From Escherichia coli (GTDB taxonomy: Bacteria > Pseudomonadota > Gammaproteobacteria > Enterobacterales > Enterobacteriaceae): a DNA stretch of 64,000 bases. Shown piece after piece: positions 1 through 15,518 of the stretch. Positions within the stretch are counted from its first letter, which is position 1, and the number at the start of each line of letters is the position of its first letter. The notes under the pieces were generated by a model that ran no database searches, was not told the origin of the DNA, and worked only from the letters and a program-made list of their open reading frames with translations. Where the stretch lies: NCBI RefSeq assembly GCF_003790525.1, contig NZ_CP033635.1; one strand, 5' to 3'. The position numbers and the translations under genes were made by a program.

Positions 1-797
1 ACCGAAACTCCGTGGTGTAGTGCGTTTGTTGGTGCGGTGTTCCCTGCGCCAGCGGGGATAAACCGTTGGTATTAACGGGAATGTAGTCACTCCAGGAGTG
101 TTCCCTGCGCCAGCGGGGATAAACCGGCGATCGTATTTTCCGCTACGTCGCTCAAATGGTGTTCCCTGCGCCAGCGGGGATAAACCGTCGTTGATGGTGT
201 GATGAGTGTACAAAAAAAAGTGTTCCCTGCGCCAGCGGGGATAAACCGACGACTGAATCCGGCGAGGCTATCAACTGGCCGTGTTCCCTGCGCCAGCGGG
301 GATAAACCGCCGCACACGTCGAGCTGGTGGGGATTAATGCTGTGTTCCCTGCGCCAGCGGGGATAAACCGCAGTAAACGTTCGCGCGTTCTCGCGCTCAC
401 GAGTGTTCCCTGCGCCAGCGGGGATAAACCCTCTGTGTATTCGCTACCAGCCAGCACCGGTACGTGTTCCCTGCGCCAGCGGGGATAAACCGCAGGGTAA
501 CTGGCTGCTCCTCAACCATTCCGCGTGTTCCCCGCGCCAGCGGGGATAAACCGGGGTTTTAGCGACCGGACCAGAGTACGCAACAGTGTTCCCCGCGCCA
601 GCGGGGATAAACCGTTGCGCCTTAAGTTCCTTAACTTCCTCTGTATGTGTTCCCCGCGCCAGCGGGGATAAACCGGGAGTGATGAATTGGAAGTAACGGA
701 TAACCGCGTGTTCCCTGCGCCAGCGGGGATAAACCGGACGCACTGGATGCGATGATGGATATCACTTAGAGTTCCCCCCGCCCCTGCGGTAGAACTC
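1..797 (+). CRISPR. Type I-E CRISPR array, iap-proximal (distal) end; 13 repeats in window including a degenerate terminal repeat; truncated by window start
   Basis: 29-bp repeat GTGTTCCC(T/C)GCGCCAGCGGGGATAAACCG at a strict 61-bp period starting at 37,98,159,220,281,342,403,464,525,586,647,708; 32-bp unique spacers; degenerate repeat GAGTTCCCCCCGCCCCTGCGGTAGAACTC at 769-797; positions 1-36 are the end of a further repeat plus one spacer. Confidence 0.97.
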
Positions 798-819
798 CCA
801 GCTCCCATTTTCAAACCCA

Positions 820-1857
820 TCAAGACGCCTTCGCCAGCTCTTTCACCAGAGGTAGCATTATCCGCATAACGTCACGGCAGCGACGTTCTATTCTTCCAGG
901 AAGTGCCTTATCAATATGTTGTTGATTATCCAGTCTTACGTCATGCCAGCTATTTCCCGCAGGGAATGCAGCTGTTTTTGCGCGTTGCTGATAACCATCC
1001 TTATTTCCAAGATTCCAGTTGGTCGCCTCCACCGAAAGTACCGCAATACCGGCTTTGTCGAAAACTTCGGCGTCATTACAACAGCCAGTACCCTTCGGAT
1101 AATTTTTATTCAAACCCGGATTGGTCGTTGCGGCAATTCCATGACTACGCGCAATTGCCAGCGCCCTGTCGCGCGTTAATTTCCTTACTGCTTCAGGGGT
1201 TTTTACACCGCTGTTGAAATACAATTTATCGCCAACAATTAAGTTATCGAGATTAATCACCAGCAGTGTATTTTTCTTTTCGGAGTCACTCATCCGCTTG
1301 AGTAAATTCTCAGCGCCTAATTTCCCTTCCTCTTCGCCGCTGGTCGCCACAAATCGAATACCATACTCGGTAGGCGTATTTTTCAGGCGTTCTGCCAATT
1401 CCAGCATGACACCTAAACCTGCGGCGTTATCATCCATTCCTTGTAACGTCAGCCCGCCGAGATTGGCATCGGCGTCAGCATCGCTCAGCGGGGCGTAAGT
1501 ATCCAGATGCGCCATAATGATGATCTGCTGCGGCGCTTTGCCTTCATGAGCGGCAATCACCGTACTTCCCGTCACGTTATGCCAGCTCTTGCGATTATCG
1601 CGGGCGGTATAAATATACCGACTATTAAATGTCCGAATATCACTGCGATAACCCATTTGCTGAAACTGTTGGCGAATATAATCGGCAGATAACATTTCTG
1701 CTGGAGTTCCGGTCATGCGTCCCGGAAAGAAAGTAGCAATATGTCGTGCCTGGGTATTAGCAAAATCGCCAGGTTTAGGTGACGAGGCGTGTACGGGGAG
1801 AATAAAGCATACGCCGAGCGCCAGGGCAGCGGTACGGTGGCGCAATGCGGAAAACAT
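820..1857 (-). CDS. iap: Alkaline phosphatase isozyme conversion aminopeptidase
   Basis: 345-aa ORF, N-terminus MFSALRHRTAALALGVCFILPVHA with signal peptide; recognised as E. coli Iap; lies next to the CRISPR array as in E. coli. Confidence 0.93.
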   Translation of the reverse strand: MFSALRHRTAALALGVCFILPVHASSPKPGDFANTQARHIATFFPGRMTGTPAEMLSADYIRQQFQQMGYRSDIRTFNSRYIYTARDNRKSWHNVTGSTVIAAHEGKAPQQIIIMAHLDTYAPLSDADADANLGGLTLQGMDDNAAGLGVMLELAERLKNTPTEYGIRFVATSGEEEGKLGAENLLKRMSDSEKKNTLLVINLDNLIVGDKLYFNSGVKTPEAVRKLTRDRALAIARSHGIAATTNPGLNKNYPKGTGCCNDAEVFDKAGIAVLSVEATNWNLGNKDGYQQRAKTAAFPAGNSWHDVRLDNQQHIDKALPGRIERRCRDVMRIMLPLVKELAKAS

Positions 1858-2108
1858 AGTGAGTCCTTAAATACCATGCAAATTTTTTTACCGCCATAGT
1901 ATGAAACTGCCGCTGCGCTAAAACAATTTCAAATCTTCCTAAACGCCCGAAATCCGGTGCCTTAAGCACTTTTTGATATTAGCTTTGCCAAATCGTTATT
2001 CCGTTAAGGAACTACTCATTCTAATTGGTAATTTCATTCGTTCTCTTACGCTCCCTATAGTCGAAACATCTGATGGCAAGAAAATAGCGGTATTGCAAAG
2101 GAACGGTT

Positions 2109-3017
2109 ATGGATCAAATACGACTTACTCACCTGCGGCAACTGGAGGCGGAAAGCATCCACATTATTCGCGAGGTGGCGGCAGAATTCTCAAATCCGGT
2201 GATGCTCTACTCTATCGGTAAAGATTCCAGCGTCATGCTGCATCTGGCGCGCAAGGCGTTTTATCCAGGTACGCTGCCTTTCCCGTTGCTGCATGTCGAT
2301 ACCGGCTGGAAATTCCGCGAGATGTATGAGTTCCGCGATCGTACGGCGAAAGCCTACGGCTGCGAGCTGCTGGTGCATAAAAACCCGGAAGGCGTGGCGA
2401 TGGGGATTAATCCATTCGTACACGGCAGCGCGAAACATACCGATATTATGAAAACTGAAGGCCTGAAACAGGCGCTGAACAAATACGGTTTTGATGCCGC
2501 CTTCGGTGGTGCGCGCCGTGACGAAGAGAAATCCCGCGCTAAAGAGCGAATCTACTCTTTCCGTGACCGCTTCCATCGCTGGGATCCGAAAAATCAGCGC
2601 CCGGAGCTGTGGCACAACTACAACGGGCAAATTAACAAAGGCGAAAGCATCCGCGTCTTCCCGCTCTCTAACTGGACCGAGCAGGATATCTGGCAATACA
2701 TCTGGCTGGAAAATATCGACATTGTGCCGCTGTATCTCGCTGCGGAACGTCCGGTTCTGGAACGCGACGGTATGTTGATGATGATTGATGACAACCGTAT
2801 CGACCTGCAACCGGGCGAAGTGATTAAAAAACGGATGGTGCGTTTCCGTACGCTGGGCTGCTGGCCGCTGACCGGTGCGGTGGAGTCAAATGCACAAACA
2901 CTGCCGGAGATCATCGAAGAGATGCTGGTTTCCACCACCAGTGAACGTCAGGGCCGCGTGATTGACCGCGACCAGGCGGGGTCTATGGAGCTGAAAAAAC
3001 GTCAGGGGTATTTTTAA
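2109..3017 (+). CDS. cysD: Sulfate adenylyltransferase subunit 2
   Basis: 302-aa ORF, ATG at 2109, recognised CysD sequence; followed closely by cysN. Confidence 0.95.
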
Positions 3018-3018
3018 G

Positions 3019-4446
3019 ATGAACACCGCACTTGCACAACAAATCGCCAATGAAGGCGGCGTCGAAGCCTGGATGATTGCGCAACAACATAAAAGCCTGC
3101 TGCGTTTTCTGACCTGTGGTAGCGTCGATGACGGCAAAAGTACCCTGATTGGTCGCCTGCTACACGATACCCGCCAAATCTACGAAGATCAGCTCTCATC
3201 GCTGCATAACGACAGTAAGCGTCACGGCACCCAGGGCGAAAAGCTGGATCTGGCACTGCTGGTGGACGGCCTGCAAGCTGAGCGCGAACAGGGCATCACT
3301 ATTGATGTGGCCTACCGCTATTTCTCTACCGAGAAGCGTAAATTTATTATCGCCGACACCCCAGGGCACGAGCAGTACACCCGCAATATGGCGACTGGCG
3401 CATCGACATGTGAACTGGCGATCTTACTGATCGATGCCCGTAAAGGCGTGCTCGATCAAACCCGTCGTCACAGTTTTATCTCCACACTGTTGGGGATCAA
3501 ACATCTGGTCGTGGCGATCAACAAAATGGATCTGGTGGATTACAGTGAAGAGACGTTCACCCGTATTCGTGAAGATTATCTGACTTTTGCCGGGCAGCTG
3601 CCGGGTAATCTGGATATCCGCTTTGTGCCGCTCTCCGCACTGGAAGGCGACAACGTGGCTTCGCAAAGTGAAAGTATGCCGTGGTACAGCGGTCCGACAC
3701 TGCTCGAAGTGCTGGAAACCGTGGAGATCCAGCGAGTGGTGGATGCACAGCCTATGCGCTTCCCGGTGCAGTACGTTAACCGCCCGAATCTCGATTTTCG
3801 TGGCTACGCCGGAACGCTGGCATCCGGTCGCGTGGAAGTCGGGCAACGTGTAAAAGTGTTGCCCTCTGGTGTGGAATCAAACGTCGCGCGGATCGTGACT
3901 TTTGATGGCGATCGCGAAGAAGCCTTTGCCGGAGAAGCGATCACCCTGGTGCTGACGGATGAGATCGACATCAGCCGTGGCGATCTGCTGCTGGCGGCAG
4001 ACGAAGCGTTACCGGCTGTGCAGAGCGCGTCGGTGGATGTGGTATGGATGGCGGAACAGCCGCTTTCCCCAGGCCAGAGTTACGACATCAAAATTGCCGG
4101 TAAGAAGACGCGTGCTCGTGTTGATGGCATTCGTTATCAGGTTGATATCAATAACCTTACCCAACGCGAAGTTGAAAACCTGCCGCTGAACGGCATCGGC
4201 CTGGTAGATCTCACCTTTGACGAGCCGCTGGTGTTAGATCGTTATCAGCAAAACCCGGTTACCGGTGGGCTGATTTTTATCGATCGCCTGAGTAATGTGA
4301 CCGTAGGTGCCGGTATGGTGCACGAACCAGTTAGCCAGGCAACTGCTGCGCCATCTGAATTCAGTGCATTCGAACTGGAATTGAATGCCCTGGTTCGCCG
4401 CCATTTCCCGCATTGGGGTGCGCGCGATTTACTGGGAGATAAATAA
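3019..4446 (+). CDS. cysN: Sulfate adenylyltransferase subunit 1 (GTPase)
   Basis: 475-aa ORF with GTPase motifs ([18 protein letters not shown]); start 1 nt after cysD stop. Confidence 0.95.
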
Positions 4447-5051
4447 TGGCTCTGCATGACGAAAACGTCGTCTGGCATAGCCACCCAGTCACTGTGCAAC
4501 AACGCGAGCTACACCACGGTCATCGTGGTGTAGTGCTGTGGTTTACCGGCCTCTCCGGGTCCGGTAAATCAACGGTCGCCGGGGCGCTGGAGGAGGCGTT
4601 ACATAAACTTGGCGTCAGTACGTATCTGCTGGATGGCGACAACGTTCGCCACGGATTATGCAGCGATCTCGGTTTTAGCGATGCCGACCGTAAAGAGAAT
4701 ATCCGTCGCGTCGGTGAAGTGGCGAATTTGATGGTTGAAGCCGGACTGGTGGTGCTGACCGCATTTATCTCGCCACACCGCGCCGAACGCCAGATGGTTC
4801 GCGAACGCGTAGGAGAAGGGCGCTTTATCGAAGTGTTTGTCGATACGCCGCTGGCGATTTGCGAAGCCCGCGATCCAAAAGGCTTATATAAGAAAGCGCG
4901 TGCCGGTGAACTGCGTAACTTTACGGGAATAGATTCTGTTTACGAAGCGCCTGAATCGGCAGAAATTCATCTCAATGGTGAACAATTAGTAACAAATTTG
5001 GTACAGCAATTATTAGATCTGTTGAGACAGAACGATATTATCAGATCCTGA
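4446..5051 (+). CDS. cysC: Adenylylsulfate (APS) kinase
   Basis: 201-aa ORF with P-loop GLSGSGKST; ATAATGG stop/start overlap with cysN. Confidence 0.95.
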
Positions 5052-5100
5052 GACACCACCGGGTTTCCATGCCCGGTTCGTCAAAGTAACAGGATCAAAT

Positions 5101-5424
5101 ATGCGTAATAGCCATAACATTACACTAACAAATAACGACAGCCTTACTGAGGATGAAGAAACCACATGGTCACTGCCTGGTGCCGTGGTCGGTTTTATCT
5201 CATGGTTATTTGCGCTGGCGATGCCGATGTTGATTTATGGCTCTAACACGCTGTTCTTCTTTATCTACACCTGGCCTTTCTTTCTGGCACTGATGCCTGT
5301 CGCGGTAGTGGTGGGGATTGCGCTGCATTCATTGATGGACGGAAAGCTACGCTACAGTATTGTTTTCACCCTGGTGACAGTAGGCATTATGTTTGGCGCA
5401 CTGTTTATGTGGCTACTGGGCTAA
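5101..5424 (+). CDS. ygbE: Inner membrane protein YgbE (DUF3561)
   Basis: 107-aa hydrophobic ORF in the conserved position between cysC and ftsB. Confidence 0.85.
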   Translation: MRNSHNITLTNNDSLTEDEETTWSLPGAVVGFISWLFALAMPMLIYGSNTLFFFIYTWPFFLALMPVAVVVGIALHSLMDGKLRYSIVFTLVTVGIMFGALFMWLLG

Positions 5425-5617
5425 TTTGTACTTTCTTGTCTCCTCTGTTCATAATTCAAACCGTAACTAATAATGAGATTATGTTCTGCACGCCCTGGGT
5501 ATACGTAACAATGGACAAATGTGGTACATTTGCCCGCGTTGTCGCGGTATCCCCAACAGAGGATGTAGAGTCGTCTTCGGATGCATGGGATGATGATGCC
5601 GTTTTTCAGGGGGCAGG

Positions 5618-5929
5618 ATGGGTAAACTAACGCTGCTGTTGCTGGCTATTCTGGTCTGGCTACAGTATTCGCTGTGGTTCGGTAAGAACGGTATACATGA
5701 CTATACCCGCGTCAATGATGATGTGGCGGCACAGCAAGCTACAAACGCTAAACTTAAAGCGCGAAACGATCAACTTTTTGCCGAAATTGACGATCTCAAT
5801 GGCGGCCAGGAGGCGCTCGAAGAGCGTGCGCGTAATGAACTCAGCATGACCAGGCCGGGCGAAACTTTTTATCGTCTGGTGCCTGACGCGTCGAAGCGCG
5901 CACAGTCTGCGGGGCAAAACAATCGATAA
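5618..5929 (+). CDS. ftsB: Cell division protein FtsB
   Basis: 103-aa ORF, N-terminal TM segment then coiled coil; recognised FtsB sequence. Confidence 0.93.
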
Positions 5930-5947
5930 ATCAGCCCAGGAATTAAC

Positions 5948-6658
5948 ATGGCAACCACTCATTTGGATGTTTGCGCCGTGGTTCCGGCGGCCGGATTTGG
6001 CCGTCGAATGCAAACGGAATGTCCTAAGCAATATCTCTCAATCGGTAATCAAACCATTCTTGAACACTCGGTGCATGCGCTGCTGGCGCATCCCCGGGTG
6101 ACACGTGTCGTCATTGCCATAAGTCCTGGCGATAGCCGTTTTGCAAAACTTCCTCTGGCGAATCATCCGCAAATCACCGTTGTAGATGGCGGTGATGAGC
6201 GTGCCGATTCCGTGCTGGCAGGTTTGAAAGCCGCTGGCGACGCGCAGTGGGTATTGGTGCATGATGCCGCTCGTCCTTGTCTGCATCAGGATGACCTCGC
6301 GCGATTGTTGGCGTTGAGCGAAACCAGCCGCACGGGAGGGATCCTCGCCGCACCAGTGCGCGATACGATGAAACGTGCCGAACCGGGCAAAAATGCCATT
6401 GCTCATACCGTTGATCGCAACGGCTTATGGCACGCGCTGACGCCGCAATTTTTCCCTCGTGAGCTGTTACATGACTGTCTGACGCGTGCTCTAAATGAAG
6501 GCGCGACTATTACTGACGAAGCCTCGGCGCTGGAATATTGCGGATTTCATCCGCAGTTGGTCGAAGGCCGCGCGGATAACATTAAAGTCACGCGCCCGGA
6601 GGATTTGGCGCTGGCCGAATTTTACCTCACCCGAACCATCCATCAGGAGAATACATAA
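5948..6658 (+). CDS. ispD: 2-C-methyl-D-erythritol 4-phosphate cytidylyltransferase
   Basis: 236-aa ORF, recognised IspD; overlaps ispF start. Confidence 0.95.
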
Positions 6659-7137
6659 TGCGAATTGGACACGGTTTTGACGTACACGCCTTTGGCGGTG
6701 AAGGCCCAATTATCATTGGTGGCGTGCGCATTCCTTACGAAAAAGGGCTGCTGGCGCATTCTGATGGCGACGTGGCGCTCCATGCGTTGACCGATGCATT
6801 GCTTGGCGCGGCGGCGCTGGGGGATATCGGCAAACTGTTCCCGGATACCGATCCGGCATTTAAAGGTGCCGACAGCCGCGAGCTGTTGCGCGAAGCCTGG
6901 CGTCGTATTCAGGCGAAAGGTTATGCCCTCGGCAACGTCGATGTCACTATCATCGCTCAGGCACCGAAGATGTTGCCGCACATTCCACAAATGCGCGTGT
7001 TTATTGCCGAAGATCTCGGCTGCCATATGGATGATGTTAACGTGAAAGCCACTACTACGGAAAAACTGGGATTTACCGGACGTGGGGAAGGGATTGCCTG
7101 TGAAGCGGTGGCGCTACTCATTAAGGCAACGAAATGA
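6658..7137 (+). CDS. ispF: 2-C-methyl-D-erythritol 2,4-cyclodiphosphate synthase
   Basis: 159-aa ORF, recognised IspF. Confidence 0.95.
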
Positions 7138-8163
7138 TTGAGTTCGATAATCTCACTTACCTCCACGGCAAACCGCAAGGCACCGGGCTGCTGAAAGCGA
7201 ATCCGGAAGACTTTGTGGTGGTGGAAGATTTGGGCTTTGAGCCTGATGGTGAAGGTGAGCATATTCTGGTTAGAATCCTCAAAAACGGCTGCAATACCCG
7301 TTTTGTGGCGGATGCACTGGCGAAATTCCTGAAAATTCATGCCCGTGAAGTCAGCTTCGCTGGGCAAAAAGATAAACATGCTGTTACGGAACAGTGGTTA
7401 TGCGCTCGCGTGCCGGGCAAAGAGATGCCCGATCTGAGCGCCTTTCAACTGGAAGGCTGCCAGGTGCTGGAGTATGCGCGGCACAAGCGCAAGCTGCGTT
7501 TAGGGGCGCTGAAAGGTAACGCCTTTACCCTGGTACTACGCGAAGTGAGCAATCGCGATGACGTTGAACAACGTCTGATCGATATTTGCGTAAAAGGTGT
7601 ACCGAACTACTTCGGTGCCCAACGTTTTGGGATTGGCGGTAGCAACTTGCAGGGCGCGCTGCGCTGGGCGCAAACCAATACTCCGGTGCGCGATCGCAAT
7701 AAACGGAGTTTTTGGTTGTCGGCAGCCCGCAGTGCGTTGTTTAATCAGATTGTTGCTGAGCGCCTCAAAAAAGCAGACGTTAATCAAGTTGTTGACGGCG
7801 ATGCGCTACAATTAGCCGGACGTGGTAGCTGGTTTGTTGCAACCACCGAAGAAGTGGCGGAATTACAGCGTCGCGTCAACGATAAAGAGCTAATGATAAC
7901 CGCCGCATTGCCGGGCAGTGGCGAATGGGGAACTCAGCGTGAAGCGCTGGCATTCGAACAAGCAGCTGTCGCCGCAGAAACTGAATTACAAGCTTTACTG
8001 GTGCGCGAAAAAGTTGAAGCCGCGCGCAGAGCGATGCTGCTGTATCCGCAACAATTAAGCTGGAACTGGTGGGATGACGTCACCGTAGAAATCCGTTTCT
8101 GGCTTCCGGCGGGTAGTTTTGCAACCAGCGTTGTCAGGGAACTTATCAACACAACAGGTGATT

Positions 8164-8183
<20 letters not shown>
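7134..8183 (+). CDS. truD: tRNA pseudouridine(13) synthase
   Basis: 349-aa ORF, recognised TruD; 4-bp overlap with ispF. Confidence 0.93.
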
Positions 8184-9545
<1,362 letters not shown>

Positions 9546-9684
9546 AACGTGAGGAAATACCTGGATTTTTCCTGGTTATTTTGCCGCAGGTCAGCGTATC
9601 GTGAACATCTTTTCCAGTGTTCAGTATGGTGCCTTGCACGGTAATTATGTCACTGGTTATTAACCAATTTTTCCTGGGGGATAA

Positions 9685-10824
9685 ATGAGCGCGGGAAGCC
9701 CAAAATTCACCGTTCGCCGCATTGCGGCTTTGTCACTGGTTTCGCTATGGCTGGCAGGCTGTTCTGACACTTCAAATCCACCGGCCCCGGTCAGCTCCGT
9801 TAATGGCAATGCGCCTGCAAATACCAATTCTGGTATGTTGATTACGCCGCCGCCGAAAATGGGGACGACGTCTACAGCGCAGCAACCGCAAATTCAGCCG
9901 GTACAGCAGCCACAAATTCAGGCCACTCAACAACCGCAAATCCAGCCGGTGCAGCCAGTAGCTCAGCAGCCGGTACAGATGGAAAACGGACGCATCGTCT
10001 ATAACCGTCAGTATGGGAACATTCCGAAAGGCAGTTATAGCGGCAGTACCTATACAGTGAAAAAAGGCGACACACTTTTCTATATCGCCTGGATTACTGG
10101 CAACGATTTCCGTGACCTTGCTCAGCGCAACAATATTCAGGCACCATATGCGCTGAACGTCGGTCAGACCTTACAGGTGGGGAATGCTTCCGGTACGCCA
10201 ATCACTGGCGGAAATGCCATTACCCAGGCCGACGCAGCAGAGCAAGGAGTTGTGATCAAGCCTGCACAAAATTCCACCGTTGCTGTTGCTTCGCAACCGA
10301 CAATTACGTATTCTGAGTCTTCGGGTGAACAGAGTGCTAACAAAATGTTGCCGAACAACAAGCCAACTGCGACCACGGTCACAGCGCCTGTAACGGTACC
10401 AACAGCAAGCACAACCGAGCCGACTGTCAGCAGTACATCAACCAGTACGCCTATCTCCACCTGGCGCTGGCCGACTGAGGGCAAAGTGATCGAAACCTTT
10501 GGCGCTTCTGAGGGGGGCAACAAGGGGATTGATATCGCAGGCAGCAAAGGACAGGCAATTATCGCGACTGCAGATGGCCGCGTTGTTTATGCCGGTAACG
10601 CGCTGCGCGGCTACGGTAATCTGATTATCATCAAACATAATGATGATTACCTGAGTGCCTACGCCCATAACGACACAATGCTGGTCCGGGAACAACAAGA
10701 AGTGAAGGCGGGGCAAAAAATAGCAACCATGGGTAGCACCGGAACCAGTTCAACACGCTTGCATTTTGAAATTCGTTACAAGGGGAAATCCGTAAACCCG
10801 CTGCGTTATTTGCCGCAGCGATAA
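9685..10824 (+). CDS. nlpD: Murein hydrolase activator lipoprotein NlpD (LysM + M23 domains)
   Basis: 379-aa ORF, lipobox LAGC, Q/P-rich linker, LysM and C-terminal M23 region; recognised NlpD. Confidence 0.95.
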
Positions 10825-10886
10825 ATCGGCGGAACCAGGCTTTTGCTTGAATGTTCCGTCAAGGGATCACGGGTAGGAGCCACCTT

Positions 10887-11879
10887 ATGAGTCAGAATAC
10901 GCTGAAAGTTCATGATTTAAATGAAGATGCGGAATTTGATGAGAACGGAGTTGAGGTTTTTGACGAAAAGGCCTTAGTAGAAGAGGAACCCAGTGATAAC
11001 GATTTGGCCGAAGAGGAACTGTTATCGCAGGGAGCCACACAGCGTGTGCTGGACGCGACTCAGCTTTACCTTGGTGAGATTGGTTATTCACCACTGTTAA
11101 CGGCCGAAGAAGAAGTTTATTTTGCGCGTCGCGCACTGCGTGGAGATGTTGCCTCTCGCCGCCGGATGATCGAGAGTAACTTGCGTCTGGTGGTAAAAAT
11201 TGCCCGCCGTTATGGCAATCGTGGTCTGGCGTTGCTGGACCTGATCGAAGAGGGCAACCTGGGGCTGATCCGCGCGGTAGAGAAGTTTGACCCGGAACGT
11301 GGTTTCCGCTTCTCAACATACGCAACCTGGTGGATTCGCCAGACGATCGAACGGGCGATTATGAACCAAACCCGTACTATTCGTTTGCCGATTCACATCG
11401 TAAAGGAGCTGAACGTTTACCTGCGAACCGCACGCGAGTTGTCCCATAAACTGGACCATGAACCAAGTGCGGAAGAGATCGCAGAGCAACTGGATAAGCC
11501 AGTTGATGACGTCAGCCGTATGCTTCGTCTTAACGAGCGCATTACCTCGGTAGACACCCCGCTGGGTGGTGATTCCGAAAAAGCGTTGCTGGACATCCTG
11601 GCCGATGAAAAAGAGAACGGTCCGGAAGATACCACGCAAGATGACGATATGAAGCAGAGCATCGTCAAATGGCTGTTCGAGCTGAACGCCAAACAGCGTG
11701 AAGTGCTGGCACGTCGATTCGGTTTGCTGGGGTACGAAGCGGCAACACTGGAAGATGTAGGTCGTGAAATTGGCCTCACCCGTGAACGTGTTCGCCAGAT
11801 TCAGGTTGAAGGCCTGCGCCGTTTGCGCGAAATCCTGCAAACGCAGGGGCTGAATATCGAAGCGCTGTTCCGCGAATAA
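10887..11879 (+). CDS. rpoS: RNA polymerase sigma factor RpoS (sigma-38), full length
   Basis: ORF track start 10851 trimmed to ATG 10887 ([11 protein letters not shown]...), 330 aa; codon 33 is GAG (Glu). Confidence 0.96.
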
Positions 11880-11895
11880 GTAAGCATCTGTCAGA

Positions 11896-11930
11896 AAGGC
11901 CAGTCTCAAGCGAGGCTGGCCTTTTTCTTT
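11896..11930 (+). terminator. Rho-independent terminator downstream of rpoS
   Basis: GC-rich hairpin AAAGGCCAGTCTCAAGCGAGGCTGGCCTTT followed by a T-tract. Confidence 0.8.
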
Positions 11931-11998
11931 TATTTGGGAGTCGGTGTGTTTTGTCGCCTGGATAAGACACGTCAGCGTCCCACCCGGCAATCAACATC

Positions 11999-12439
11999 CT
12001 ATTTGCTCATCATCTTGCGCACCAGCTGCATAAACAGCTCCTGCTCTTCTGCACTCAAACGCCCCAAAAATTCCTCATCCACACTGTCACCAATCGGTAT
12101 CGCCGCAGCAAGTACCTTTTCTCCTTCGGCAGTCAGCCAGACAAAGCGTCGCCGCTTATCAGCAGAGTCATGTTCTCGTCTGACTAAGCCACGATTTTCC
12201 ATTCGTGCCAACATTTCTGCCAGCGTTGCTTTGGTGCTGACGGCTGCTTCTATCAGTGCCACCTGTTCGATACCAGGTTTATCAGCAATGGCGCGCATCA
12301 CCGCGTACTGTGGTTTGGTCAGATCAGGTAACTCGTGCTGCCAGCGAGCCGTGTGCTGCTGAAAAAGCTGTCGTAACTGATGGAACGCTTTATTTCGTAA
12401 CGCCATGTAAACTCCGGGCAAACTATCTGCCGCTATCAT
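11999..12439 (-). CDS. MarR/SlyA-family transcriptional regulator
   Basis: 146-aa ORF with winged-helix region typical of the MarR family; divergent from the decarboxylase operon. Confidence 0.85.
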   Translation of the reverse strand: MIAADSLPGVYMALRNKAFHQLRQLFQQHTARWQHELPDLTKPQYAVMRAIADKPGIEQVALIEAAVSTKATLAEMLARMENRGLVRREHDSADKRRRFVWLTAEGEKVLAAAIPIGDSVDEEFLGRLSAEEQELFMQLVRKMMSK

Positions 12440-12521
12440 AGCGGTTTTTCAGTGACGAAGAAGATGTTGTTACTTTTCAGCGCTTGCCGCGATGAAAACA
12501 GAGGCGTATTTTAATAATAAC

Positions 12522-12535
12522 GTTCGTATACGAAC
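12522..12535. promoter_or_regulatory. Perfect 14-bp palindrome GTTCGTATACGAAC, candidate operator for the adjacent MarR-family regulator
   Basis: Read directly; sits about 18 bp upstream of the ATG at 12553 inside the divergent intergenic region. Confidence 0.4.
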
Positions 12536-12552
12536 AATTTAGAGAGTAAGCA

Positions 12553-13146
12553 ATGAAACTGATCGTCGGGATGACAGGGGCTACCGGTGCGCCTCTTGGG
12601 GTGGCATTACTGCAAGCGCTGCGGGAGATGCCGAATGTCGAGACTCATCTGGTGATGTCGAAGTGGGCGAGAACCACCATTGAACTGGAAACGCCTTACA
12701 GCGCTCGCGATGTTGCTGCCCTCGCAGACTTCAGCCATAACCCGGCGGATCAGGCGGCGACCATCTCCTCAGGTTCCTTTCGTACCGACGGCATGATCGT
12801 TATTCCGTGCAGTATGAAAACGCTCGCCGGTATCCGTGCCGGTTACGCCGATGGCCTGGTGGGGCGCGCGGCGGACGTCGTGCTCAAAGAAGGCCGCAAA
12901 CTGGTGCTGGTGCCGCGTGAAATGCCGCTTAGCACAATCCATCTCGAAAATATGCTCGCACTTTCGCGCATGGGCGTGGCGATGGTGCCGCCGATGCCTG
13001 CCTTTTATAACCATCCCGAAACGGTAGATGACATTGTCCACCACGTGGTAGCCCGCGTGCTGGATCAATTTGGCCTCGAACATCCTCACGCCAGGCGCTG
13101 GCAAGGATTGCCGCAGGCCCGGAATTTTTCTCAGGAGAATGAATAA
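12553..13146 (+). CDS. UbiX/Pad1-family flavin prenyltransferase, B subunit of a non-oxidative hydroxyarylic acid decarboxylase system
   Basis: 197-aa ORF, N-terminus MKLIVGMTGATGA typical of the UbiX/PAD1 flavoprotein fold; translationally coupled (ATAATGG) to the UbiD-like gene; ecdB/kpdB/bsdB-type. Confidence 0.88.
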   Translation: MKLIVGMTGATGAPLGVALLQALREMPNVETHLVMSKWARTTIELETPYSARDVAALADFSHNPADQAATISSGSFRTDGMIVIPCSMKTLAGIRAGYADGLVGRAADVVLKEGRKLVLVPREMPLSTIHLENMLALSRMGVAMVPPMPAFYNHPETVDDIVHHVVARVLDQFGLEHPHARRWQGLPQARNFSQENE

Positions 13147-14573
13147 TGGCATTTGATGATTTACGCAGCTTTTTACAGGCGCTCGACGACCATGGGCAAT
13201 TGCTGAAAATCAGCGAAGAGGTGAACGCAGAACCGGATCTGGCAGCCGCAGCCAACGCCACCGGGCGTATCGGCGACGGCGCGCCCGCGCTGTGGTTTGA
13301 CAATATTCGCGGCTTTACCGATGCCCGCGTGGCGATGAACACCATCGGTTCCTGGCAGAACCACGCGATTTCCCTCGGCCTGCCGCCAAATACCCCGGTT
13401 AAAAAACAGATCGATGAGTTTATCCGCCGCTGGGACAACTTCCCGATAGCCCCGGAACGCCGAGCCAATCCAGCCTGGGCGCAGAACACCGTCGATGGCG
13501 AAAAGATTAACCTGTTCGATATCCTGCCGCTGTTTCGTTTAAACGACGGTGATGGCGGTTTCTATCTCGACAAAGCGTGCGTGGTTTCCCGCGATCCGCT
13601 CGACCCGGATAACTTCGGCAAGCAGAACGTCGGTATCTACCGCATGGAAGTGAAGGGCAAACGTAAGCTCGGCCTGCAACCGGTGCCGATGCACGATATC
13701 GCGCTGCATCTGCATAAAGCGGAAGAGCGCGGTGAAGATCTGCCGATTGCCATCACCCTCGGTAACGATCCGATCATCACCCTGATGGGGGCCACGCCGC
13801 TGAAATATGATCAGTCCGAGTACGAAATGGCGGGCGCGCTGCGCGAAAGTCCGTACCCGATTGCCACCGCCCCACTGACCGGTTTTGATGTACCCTGGGG
13901 CTCGGAAGTGATCCTCGAAGGGGTTATCGAAAGTCGTAAACGTGAAATCGAAGGGCCGTTCGGTGAGTTTACCGGGCACTACTCCGGCGGGCGCAACATG
14001 ACCGTGGTGCGCATCGATAACGTCTCTTATCGCAGCAAACCCATTTTTGAATCGCTCTATCTCGGGATGCCGTGGACGGAAATCGACTACCTGATGGGGC
14101 CAGCCACCTGCGTGCCGCTGTATCAGCAACTGAAAGCCGAGTTCCCGGAAGTGCAGGCGGTAAACGCCATGTACACCCACGGCCTGCTGGCGATTATCTC
14201 CACCAAAAAACGCTACGGTGGCTTTGCCCGCGCGGTGGGCCTCCGTGCGATGACCACGCCACACGGTCTGGGCTATGTGAAGATGGTGATTATGGTCGAT
14301 GAAGACGTTGATCCGTTCAACCTGCCGCAGGTGATGTGGGCGCTCTCTTCGAAAGTGAACCCGGCAGGGGATTTGGTGCAGTTGCCGAATATGTCCGTGC
14401 TGGAACTCGACCCTGGCTCAAGTCCGGCGGGGATCACCGACAAGCTGATTATCGACGCCACCACGCCTGTCGCCCCGGACAACCGTGGTCACTACAGTCA
14501 GCCGGTGGTGGATTTACCGGAAACCAAAGCCTGGGCTGAAAAACTGACCGCTATGCTGGCCGCACGTCAATAA
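13146..14573 (+). CDS. UbiD-family decarboxylase, C subunit of a hydroxyarylic acid decarboxylase
   Basis: 475-aa ORF of UbiD size and sequence character; in operon between UbiX-like and small-subunit genes; ecdC/kpdC/bsdC-type. Confidence 0.88.
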   Translation: MAFDDLRSFLQALDDHGQLLKISEEVNAEPDLAAAANATGRIGDGAPALWFDNIRGFTDARVAMNTIGSWQNHAISLGLPPNTPVKKQIDEFIRRWDNFPIAPERRANPAWAQNTVDGEKINLFDILPLFRLNDGDGGFYLDKACVVSRDPLDPDNFGKQNVGIYRMEVKGKRKLGLQPVPMHDIALHLHKAEERGEDLPIAITLGNDPIITLMGATPLKYDQSEYEMAGALRESPYPIATAPLTGFDVPWGSEVILEGVIESRKREIEGPFGEFTGHYSGGRNMTVVRIDNVSYRSKPIFESLYLGMPWTEIDYLMGPATCVPLYQQLKAEFPEVQAVNAMYTHGLLAIISTKKRYGGFARAVGLRAMTTPHGLGYVKMVIMVDEDVDPFNLPQVMWALSSKVNPAGDLVQLPNMSVLELDPGSSPAGITDKLIIDATTPVAPDNRGHYSQPVVDLPETKAWAEKLTAMLAARQ

Positions 14574-14583
14574 GGAGAACAAG

Positions 14584-14820
14584 ATGATTTGTCCACGTTG
14601 TGCTGATGAACAGATTGAAGTGATGGCGAAATCGCCGGTAAAAGATGTCTGGACGGTCTACCAGTGCCAGCATTGCCTCTATACCTGGCGCGATACCGAA
14701 CCGCTGCGCCGCACCAGCCGCGAACATTATCCCGAAGCGTTCCGCATGACGCAGAAAGATATTGATGACGCGCCGATGGTGCCGAGCATCCCGCCGCTGC
14801 TGGCGGAAGGTAAGTGTTAA
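14584..14820 (+). CDS. Small zinc-ribbon subunit (D) of the hydroxyarylic acid decarboxylase
   Basis: 78-aa ORF with CPRC...CQHC motif, 10 nt after the UbiD-like gene. Confidence 0.8.
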   Translation: MICPRCADEQIEVMAKSPVKDVWTVYQCQHCLYTWRDTEPLRRTSREHYPEAFRMTQKDIDDAPMVPSIPPLLAEGKC

Positions 14821-14821
14821 T

Positions 14822-14857
14822 AAAAAAGTGCCGGGTAGAGGCTTTGCTTTACCCGGC
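14822..14857. terminator. Bidirectional hairpin terminator between the convergent decarboxylase operon and pphB
   Basis: Hairpin GCCGGGTAGAGGCTTTGCTTTACCCGGC flanked by A-run on the + side (T-run on the - strand) and T-rich sequence on the other side. Confidence 0.6.
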
Positions 14858-14861
14858 CACG

Positions 14862-15518
14862 TTATTTAATTTTATAAAACGATAACCGTCTGCTTTCCGG
14901 CGAGCCGGTATCAATATAAACCTGATTGGCAAATGTCTGGATGTTATCAAACATCATATGTCCAAAGATAAAACAGTCGGCACCGTTTATTTCTTTTAAC
15001 TCTCCCTTGAATGATTTCTGCACGCGATCAACAGGCCAGAGTAATTCGCTTTCTGCTATTTCTTTACCAAACTGATATTCATCACCCGGATAATCCGCAT
15101 GTGCGATGACATATTTTATTCTGTCGTTAGTGATTTCAATAATATGTGGAAGATTATGAAAACGTAGCAACAGGTCTATTGCTTCTTTTTGTTCCGTATC
15201 ACTTAACTCAAAGAACCAGTCGCCACCGCTGGCAAGCCACATATTGCCATCGCCGGTCGCGAACGCATCCAACGCCATCGCTTCATGGTTGCCTTTAACC
15301 GATGTAAACCAGGGCTGGTTTAACAGGCGCAGCACGTTAAGACTCTCCGGCCCACGATCGATGTTATCGCCTACCGAAATAAGTAAGTCGGTTTCAGGGC
15401 AAAAAGAGAGTTGATGTAAGCGGGATTGTAATAATTGATAGTCACCATGAATATCACCAACGGCCCATATATGGCGATAGTGATGGACATTGATTTTTTG
15501 ATAGCGTGTAGATGGCAT
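14862..15518 (-). CDS. pphB: Serine/threonine protein phosphatase 2
   Basis: 218-aa ORF with metallophosphatase motifs GDIHGD, GDNIDRG, GNHE; recognised PphB. Confidence 0.92.
   Translation of the reverse strand: MPSTRYQKINVHHYRHIWAVGDIHGDYQLLQSRLHQLSFCPETDLLISVGDNIDRGPESLNVLRLLNQPWFTSVKGNHEAMALDAFATGDGNMWLASGGDWFFELSDTEQKEAIDLLLRFHNLPHIIEITNDRIKYVIAHADYPGDEYQFGKEIAESELLWPVDRVQKSFKGELKEINGADCFIFGHMMFDNIQTFANQVYIDTGSPESRRLSFYKIK

Follow-up and report, generated by a model that had tools for sequence, protein, structure and literature searches.

The first 797 nucleotides of the analysed E. coli DNA (the window, 64 kb in full length) very probably belong to the type I-E CRISPR1 array of an SMS-3-5-type E. 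coli strain and make up its older, leader-distal half. Thirteen complete spacers are present. Targets with at most four mismatches were found for six of them (S0, S1, S2, S4, S5 and S10), all in temperate-phage or plasmid genes, which bears out the statement of the preliminary description that these type I-E spacers are a record of past invaders. A convincing target was lacking for the other seven (S3, S6-S9, S11 and S12). The features of the locus are listed in Table 1.

Table 1. Features of the array and its flank in the window, with the best target of each spacer.
Feature	Position	Strand	Description
Type I-E CRISPR1 (CRISPR2.1) array, leader-distal part	1..797	+	61-nt periodic repeats; identity to SMS-3-5
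Twelve 29-nt repeats	37..736	+	starts at 37+61i
Spacer starts S1-S12	66, 127, 188, 249, 310, 371, 432, 493, 554, 615, 676, 737	+	exact string match
Spacer S0 AAACTCCGTGGTGTAGTGCGTTTGTTGGTGCG	5..36	+	28/32, PAM ATG, CHAP/TIGR02594 lysis gene (L006 6001-6032)
Spacer S1	66..97	+	29/32, PAM ATC, tail-sheath gene, E. coli ETEC1738 prophage (L003 11999-12030)
Spacer S2	127..158	+	30/32, PAM GCG, tail gene phrog_2048, JNE151685 prophage (L153 22058-22089)
Spacer S3	188..219	+	no target in phages, plasmids, E. coli genomes or representative-genome wobble scan
Spacer S4	249..280	+	29/32, PAM ATG, major capsid gene, JNE151685 prophage (L153 15001-15032)
Spacer S5	310..341	+	32/32, PAM ATG, start of holin/antiholin gene (phrog_126)
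Spacer S6	371..402	+	no target in phages, plasmids or E. coli genomes
Spacer S7	432..463	+	no target in phages, plasmids, E. coli genomes or IMG/VR
Spacer S8	493..524	+	no target in phages, plasmids, E. coli genomes or IMG/VR
Spacer S9	554..585	+	no target in phages, plasmids, E. coli genomes or IMG/VR
Spacer S10	615..646	+	28/32, PAM ATG, KfrA_N-domain DNA-binding gene (kfrA), pMB3565_2 (L007 2660-2691)
Spacer S11	676..707	+	25-26/32, non-functional PAM GCT, three related metagenomic viral contigs
Spacer S12	737..768	+	ancestral leader-distal terminal spacer
Degenerate terminal repeat GAGTTCCCCCCGCCCCTGCGGTAGAACTC	769..797	+	18/29 vs consensus
iap (alkaline phosphatase isozyme conversion aminopeptidase)	820..1857	-	345-aa ORF; named iap in SMS-3-5 and all close relatives

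Throughout the array region, direct repeats recur every 61 nt without deviation. When the window was searched for approximate copies of the E. coli I-E consensus (GWGTTCCCCGCGCCAGCGGGGATAAACCG), 12 repeats of 29 nt were recovered, which differ from the consensus by 0-2 substitutions; this search detected no further I-E repeat outside the array in the 64 kb. Repeats 1-8 and 12 have the sequence GTGTTCCCTGCGCCAGCGGGGATAAACCG. Position 9 of the repeat is a T in 9 of the 12 copies and a C in repeats 9-11, and the final base of repeat 7 (403-431), the repeat preceding S7, is C, not G. The 3' boundary of S12 is set by the degenerate terminal repeat, which lies beyond the CRISPR feature of RefSeq (ending at window position 736). 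At the opposite end, the first four bases (ACCG, positions 1-4) are the 3' remainder of a repeat truncated by the window edge, and the 32 nt that follow are therefore a complete 13th spacer, S0. All 13 spacers are distinct, each is 32 nt long and the 61-nt period is constant. The twelve 32-nt spacers reported previously were all correct in sequence and place, but S0 had been missed and the complete total is 13. For both versions of the repeat, folding gives a hairpin with a stem of 7 bp capped by a tetraloop (z-scores -2.9 and -3.2); that of the T variant contains a G-U wobble (-13.0 vs -15.2 kcal/mol). The modelled hairpin matches the stem-loop known for Cas6e recognition, and binding of Cas6e is predicted. 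An Rfam 15 gathering search of positions 1-1000 returned no family, and the lack of a model hit says little.

The chromosomal context was taken from E. coli SMS-3-5, which is free of mismatches to window positions 1-15200. Positions 1-2200 are 100% identical to SMS-3-5 and twelve other complete genomes. Downstream of the array lies the iap gene, the landmark that marks the locus as CRISPR1. In SMS-3-5 the array is already annotated by RefSeq between cas2e and iap; it starts 574 bp upstream of the window and contains nine extra spacers (U0-U8). A 96-nt leader (72% AT) precedes it, and a complete cas3-casA-casB-cas7e-cas5e-cas6e-cas1e-cas2e operon lies upstream. As neither the cas operon nor the leader falls within the window, both were taken from the sequence-identical SMS-3-5 record alone. 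The site between iap and cas2, the full operon and the AT-rich leader are those of a type I-E CRISPR1 array. The transcribed strand is the + strand, with the leader and the cas genes located to the left, off the window.

Targets were searched by blastn (word size 11, E up to 10) with the spacers joined by N linkers, against 50,697 phage records, 72,556 plasmids and 5,426 complete E. coli genomes. Further scans covered IMG/VR, representative genomes and metagenomes using patterns degenerate at codon wobble positions, and prophage contigs were recovered with an exact-protein index. A target was accepted at ≤4 mismatches over 32 nt, ungapped, as published (PMC10910852). At this threshold, with equal base frequencies assumed, all 13 spacers together should give by chance ∼0.01 matches in the phages, 0.03 in the plasmids and 0.12 in the E. 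coli genomes. The wobble-pattern scans of IMG/VR yielded no match for S1, S4, S7, S8 and S9. Scans of representative-genome contigs for S5 and S3 were likewise negative, as was a metagenome scan for S5.

The perfect match of S5 lies in a temperate myovirus that combines a lambda-like head module with a P2-like tail module. The PAM of this protospacer is the start codon of a 123-aa holin/antiholin, and a CHAP-domain endolysin gene and then the terminase genes follow downstream. The prophage is integrated at icd, flanked by mnmA-nudJ-rluE-icd on one side and ycgX-bluR-bluF-ymgA/B on the other, and was found in many draft E. coli genomes and SRA assemblies; its contigs were recovered via the exact-protein index only. 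The protospacer is also contained in the IMG/VR UViG 2529293142_000021. A search of the 5,426 complete E. coli genomes gave no case in which the protospacer occurs together with its flanks. A string search of the literature for the S5 core sequence found no paper. Three of the extra SMS-3-5 spacers match the same prophage: U6 (32/32, PAM ATG), U3 (31/32, PAM AAG) and U4 (29/32, and 32/32 in one allele). Thus S5, U3, U4 and U6 are four spacers against a single strand of one phage, a pattern typical of primed adaptation. A site homologous to the S0 target is also present in the icd prophage (24/32, PAM ATG). The early region of the prophage, from the integrase to Q, was scanned and contained no additional spacer match.

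One HK97-like siphovirus, carried as a prophage by E. coli JNE151685, is targeted by both S2 and S4, which match the same strand. S4 deviates from its target at three spacer positions (6, 12 and 24), all of which fall on codon position 3. When Cascade binds its target, every sixth spacer position is flipped out and remains unpaired. Since positions 6, 12 and 24 are such flipped-out positions, the S4 target would act like a perfect match. The gene matched by S2 is located between those of the distal tail protein and a J-like fibre. In IMG/VR, at least 120 contigs encode the corresponding DRIFRYVAQM stretch, with up to 29/32 identities to S2, and some of the variants carry the PAM AAG. For S1, about 415 E. 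coli genomes and four induced phages (the vB_EcoM-569R10 group) matched at 27/30. U3 and U4 also match the ETEC1738 prophage, 1.5 kb from the S1 site, and each of the five mismatches of U3 to this prophage is on codon position 3. The best relatives found for S1 and S2 carry non-functional PAMs (ATC and GCG), so the true donor alleles were not recovered.

Two spacers have targets on plasmids. The S0 target is carried by ∼85-kb non-mobilizable Citrobacter plasmids (pCfr13-1), which also encode phage head, portal, ddrA and giant methylase genes; from this gene content we infer that they are phage-plasmids of the P1/D6 kind. The seed of S0 is intact in the target (positions 1-14), and the mismatches at positions 20 and 26 are on codon position 3. 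The S10 target plasmid, pMB3565_2, is a conjugative IncP-like plasmid (MOBP, MPF_T). Positions 1-12 of S10 are perfect in this target, and a second copy of the site, with 26/32 identities, is located 141 bp away.

Of the six assigned targets, four (S0, S4, S5 and S10) are preceded by the PAM ATG and five have a G at position -1; S1 (ATC) and S2 (GCG) are non-canonical in the relatives found. During I-E adaptation the last PAM base is copied into the repeat end. The repeats of this array are of the GTG type, the CRISPR-A variant tied to cas-EO, for which the acquisition motif is CWT (AWG on the spacer-identical strand); natural arrays of this type most often show CAT (ATG) (PMC3737337). The target PAMs fit this AWG motif as well as a G copied into the repeat end. 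The check for an I-E PAM proposed earlier thus gave ATG at four of six targets, but the motif to be expected is AWG, not only AAG.

The matches of S0, S1, S2, S4 and S10 (28-30/32) are imperfect, and S5 might be the one spacer with a real target, the others matching by chance. Taken one by one, the blastn E-values of these matches are weak (0.003 to 10) because the databases are huge. The chance expectation for all 13 spacers together (0.01-0.12, depending on the database) argues against this reading, and so does the nature of the matches: every one lies in a phage or plasmid gene, the mismatches fall mainly on codon third positions, and three of the five near-matches carry ATG, for which the chance is about 1/64 each. 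In addition, S2 and S4 share a prophage and a strand, and S1 is backed by U3 and U4 in the ETEC1738 prophage, 1.5 kb away. Coincidental matching is therefore very improbable.

It had also been suggested that the spacers may reveal current self-targeting. Some of them would then be directed at host genes or a resident prophage, with autoimmunity or regulation as the outcome. No such target was found in the window or in the SMS-3-5 chromosome. The nearest match to any spacer elsewhere in the 64 kb has 11 mismatches over 32 nt, and the earlier remark, made by eye, that no spacer is repeated elsewhere in the window therefore held. In SMS-3-5 the array itself was the only matching place in four independent searches with a sensitivity of roughly 28-29/32. 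We consider self-targeting extremely improbable.

Among the spacers lacking an assigned target, S12 stands apart: it is found beside iap in roughly 4,200-4,700 of the 5,426 complete E. coli genomes, K-12 included. No mobile-element target was found for it; the sole match (22/23, Pseudomonas phages, E = 10) is at chance level.

K-12 MG1655 CRISPR1 has the same site by iap, the same layout of 29-nt repeats and 32-nt spacers, a degenerate terminal repeat and S12. In contrast to K-12, where the repeats start with GAG (CRISPR-T), those described here start with GTG (CRISPR-A), position 9 is changed from C to T in nine of the 12, and all spacers except S12 differ. The array resembles the O157:H7-type combination of CRISPR-A, leader-A and cas-EO (Diez-Villasenor et al. 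2013, PMC3737337), whose repeat ...GGGGAACAC corresponds to GTGTTCCCC here. The motif predicted for CRISPR-A in that work, CWT (AWG), compares with ATG at four of six targets in the present array, where the link to cas-EO is made via the repeat type. E. coli spacers target mostly prophages when the ≤4-mismatch criterion is applied (Dion et al. 2024, PMC10910852). As in the arrays of that study, the targets found here are nearly all temperate-phage genes, about half of the spacers are assignable, and the occurrence of a spacer together with its prophage in one genome is absent or rare. Unlike that repertoire, the targets here include a conjugative plasmid (S10) and a phage-plasmid (S0). Overall, the array is known and annotated, it behaves as the E. 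coli I-E literature predicts, and it is ordinary.

According to established I-E biology, the array would be transcribed from the AT-rich leader beside cas2, and Cas6e would cleave every repeat 3' of the hairpin. Each resulting 61-nt crRNA would consist of an 8-nt AUAAACCG handle, the 32-nt spacer and a 21-nt hairpin handle, and would guide Cascade and Cas3 to AWG-flanked DNA for interference. The spacers very probably constitute a memory of enterobacterial temperate phages and plasmids, with S5 recalling the icd-integrated myovirus prophage, S1 a related sheath-bearing prophage, S2 and S4 the HK97-like siphovirus prophage, S0 the lysis gene of a phage-plasmid and S10 the kfrA gene of an IncP-like plasmid. 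S12 is an ancient spacer that has become fixed in most of the species.

How active this memory is today can be judged in two ways. The array may be a fossil, an inherited memory in a silenced system that reports old encounters only and gives no protection today. At least 13 complete genomes, whose sources are humans, chickens and water in several countries, carry it without a single base difference, and ∼24 genomes contain most of its spacers; these identical and shared arrays suggest that spacers turn over very slowly. S12 has become fixed in the majority of E. coli, and the E. coli I-E system is reported to be generally repressed by H-NS, with arrays stable over years (PMC10910852). Several observations speak against it: SMS-3-5 has an intact cas operon, four spacers against one strand of one prophage show that the adaptation machinery worked in this lineage, S5 has a perfect target (32/32), and S4, whose mismatches are confined to positions 6, 12 and 24, is functionally perfect. 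We regard the fossil reading as quite possible, if somewhat short of probable. It concerns the present activity of the array, not its identity, and is compatible with the main explanation, a leader-distal CRISPR1 segment with spacers from phages and plasmids. That adaptation worked in the lineage is shown by the intact cas operon together with the clusters of same-strand spacers, while the identity across 13 genomes, the reported H-NS repression and the slow turnover favour a largely static memory. The array may still protect its host at present.

The S5 and S2 sites recur in other arrays. The S5 protospacer was found in CRISPR1 of 24 complete genomes and, in the same register, in CRISPR2 of about 85 genomes (e.g. 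O104:H4 2011C-3493), where the spacer differs at positions 3 and 24, in both cases synonymously with respect to the holin frame. With a 2-nt shift, the site is present in an orphan type I-F array between clpA and serW in about 106 genomes; in this version the leading CC of S5 is the I-F PAM. These genome counts rest on identical match geometry, with one array of each kind inspected. The S2 site is found at offset -3 in another E. coli I-E array, with the PAM ATG in the JNE151685 phage, and at offset -1 in an array of Salmonella Senftenberg, where both differences are synonymous. On the opposite strand it occurs in type I-F arrays of three chicken isolates; the GG that follows on the + strand corresponds to a CC PAM. 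It is conceivable, though rather unlikely, that the S5 and S2 sites are protospacer hot spots captured independently by both E. coli CRISPR types. Repeated capture could reflect a shared acquisition hot spot or strong selection for spacers in conserved phage sequence. The convergence of I-E and I-F arrays on the same protospacers may be undescribed; it is the one mildly unusual element of the array.

The S5 and S0 sites both lie in a lysis cassette, with the terminase genes some 0.7-1.3 kb downstream. This position upstream of the terminase genes places them near the inferred cos end, at a distance of ∼1.1-1.3 kb in the case of S5. As a speculation, sites near cos would fit a spacer sampling driven by DNA ends or RecBCD.

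In the clpA-serW orphan I-F array of strain 317, one spacer is directed against cas3f and another overlaps S5 by 30 nt. In the part of PMC8616872 that summarises Almendros et al. 2016, orphan I-F CRISPR4 arrays are described as carrying anti-cas spacers; PMC4489801 makes no mention of orphan-array spacers. The overlap between S5 and a spacer of the orphan CRISPR4 array was the reason for considering an anti-cas role against type I-F genes for S5 as well. Neither S5 nor its 34-nt extension matched the I-F locus of LF82 (12-13 mismatches). The neighbouring spacer of the orphan array served as a positive control and matched LF82 cas3f at 31/32 with a CC PAM. The anti-cas reading of S5 was rejected, its perfect match being the prophage holin. 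S5 itself resides in a type I-E array and matches the holin, whereas its orphan-array relative is of type I-F.

The biology of the array is already known: E. coli I-E arrays are textbook material and the strain has been sequenced, so that on its own the array matters little. The outcome is a target list for the lineage, comprising two temperate-phage families, a phage-plasmid and an IncP-like plasmid. In addition, the ATG PAM expected with GTG-type repeats was confirmed, and the outcome for self-targeting was cleanly negative. If the hot spots are real, they would form a naturally occurring data set that shows at which sites temperate-phage DNA is sampled by the adaptation complexes of enterobacteria.

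The start of the holin gene in the icd-integrated prophage, matched by spacer S5 of the CRISPR1 array, was also found as a spacer at two further loci, CRISPR2 and an orphan array of type I-F flanked by clpA and serW. In CRISPR2 of ~85 genomes the spacer lies in the same register and carries 2 synonymous changes. In the orphan array, present with this spacer in ~106 genomes, it is shifted by 2 nt and its target has a CC PAM; both counts rest on identical match geometry, with one array of each kind inspected. The second spacer of the orphan array is directed against cas3f (31/32). In the full set of 5,426 complete E. coli genomes, ~215 contain a spacer against the holin-start site, and the protospacer with its flanks was found in none of the 5,426. 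The prophage itself does occur in numerous draft genomes and SRA assemblies. The absence from complete genomes may reflect exclusion or sampling.

The region matched by spacer S2 was likewise captured several times independently. An E. coli type I-E array (LR536431) contains a spacer at offset -3, and a Salmonella Senftenberg array contains one at offset -1. In MS1170, MS1266 and VTB97074v, type I-F arrays target the same region on the opposite strand, with the correct CC PAM.

Spacer S4 matches a capsid gene of an HK97-like prophage except at three of its positions, 6, 12 and 24, which do not pair in the Cascade R-loop; 3/3 mismatches fall on codon third positions. The target of spacer S10 occurs twice, 141 bp apart, within a kfrA-like gene of an IncP-like plasmid, and both copies have the PAM ATG. 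The doubled target indicates an internal repeat in this coiled-coil gene.

The repeats vary at the last base and at position 9. Repeat 7, which precedes spacer S7, ends in C, where G is usual. In type I-E systems the PAM supplies the final base of the repeat, and S7 may therefore originate from a non-canonical (..C) motif or from slipped integration; S7 had no identifiable target against which to check its motif. At position 9 the base is T (CCCTGCG) in repeats 1-8 and 12 and C in repeats 9-11. The T leads to a G-U wobble in the stem and is found in 9/9 off-window repeats of the SMS-3-5 array. A single T repeat stands at the old end of the array, which suggests past recombination or parallel mutation.

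Elsewhere in the window, the stretch downstream of rpoS holds a MarR-family regulator and a cluster of three hydroxyarylic acid decarboxylase genes, for subunits B, C and D, followed by pphB. The stretch seems to be the strain-variable segment between rpoS and mutS and has no relation to the CRISPR finding.

Coordinates of spacers, targets and further features (L-numbers, sequence records)
Feature	Window	Other record	Match
Repeats compared at position 9	37-736
S2	127-158
Captures of S2 region		L154; L155; L008 5999-6030
S4	249-280	L153 15001-15032 (target)
S5	310-341
S5 site as spacer at further loci		L002 5971-6128; L009 2501-2532
Repeat 7	403-431
S10 target, copy 1		L007 2660-2691	28/32
S10 target, copy 2		L007 2801-2832	26/32
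Stretch downstream of rpoS	about 11999-14820	L001 24999-27820
U3, U4, U6 (SMS-3-5)		L001 12610-12884
Protospacers of U3/U4/U6 in icd prophage		L140 13158-13230 and 18391-18422

Upstream of the window, the SMS-3-5 array holds three spacers, U3, U4 and U6, against the icd-integrated prophage that S5 also targets, and all of these targets are on one strand. U3 and U4 are adjacent spacers, with only 9 nt between their protospacers. The perfect target of U4 has the non-canonical PAM ATA. The one-strand set of U3, U4, U6 and S5 is a priming-like cluster.
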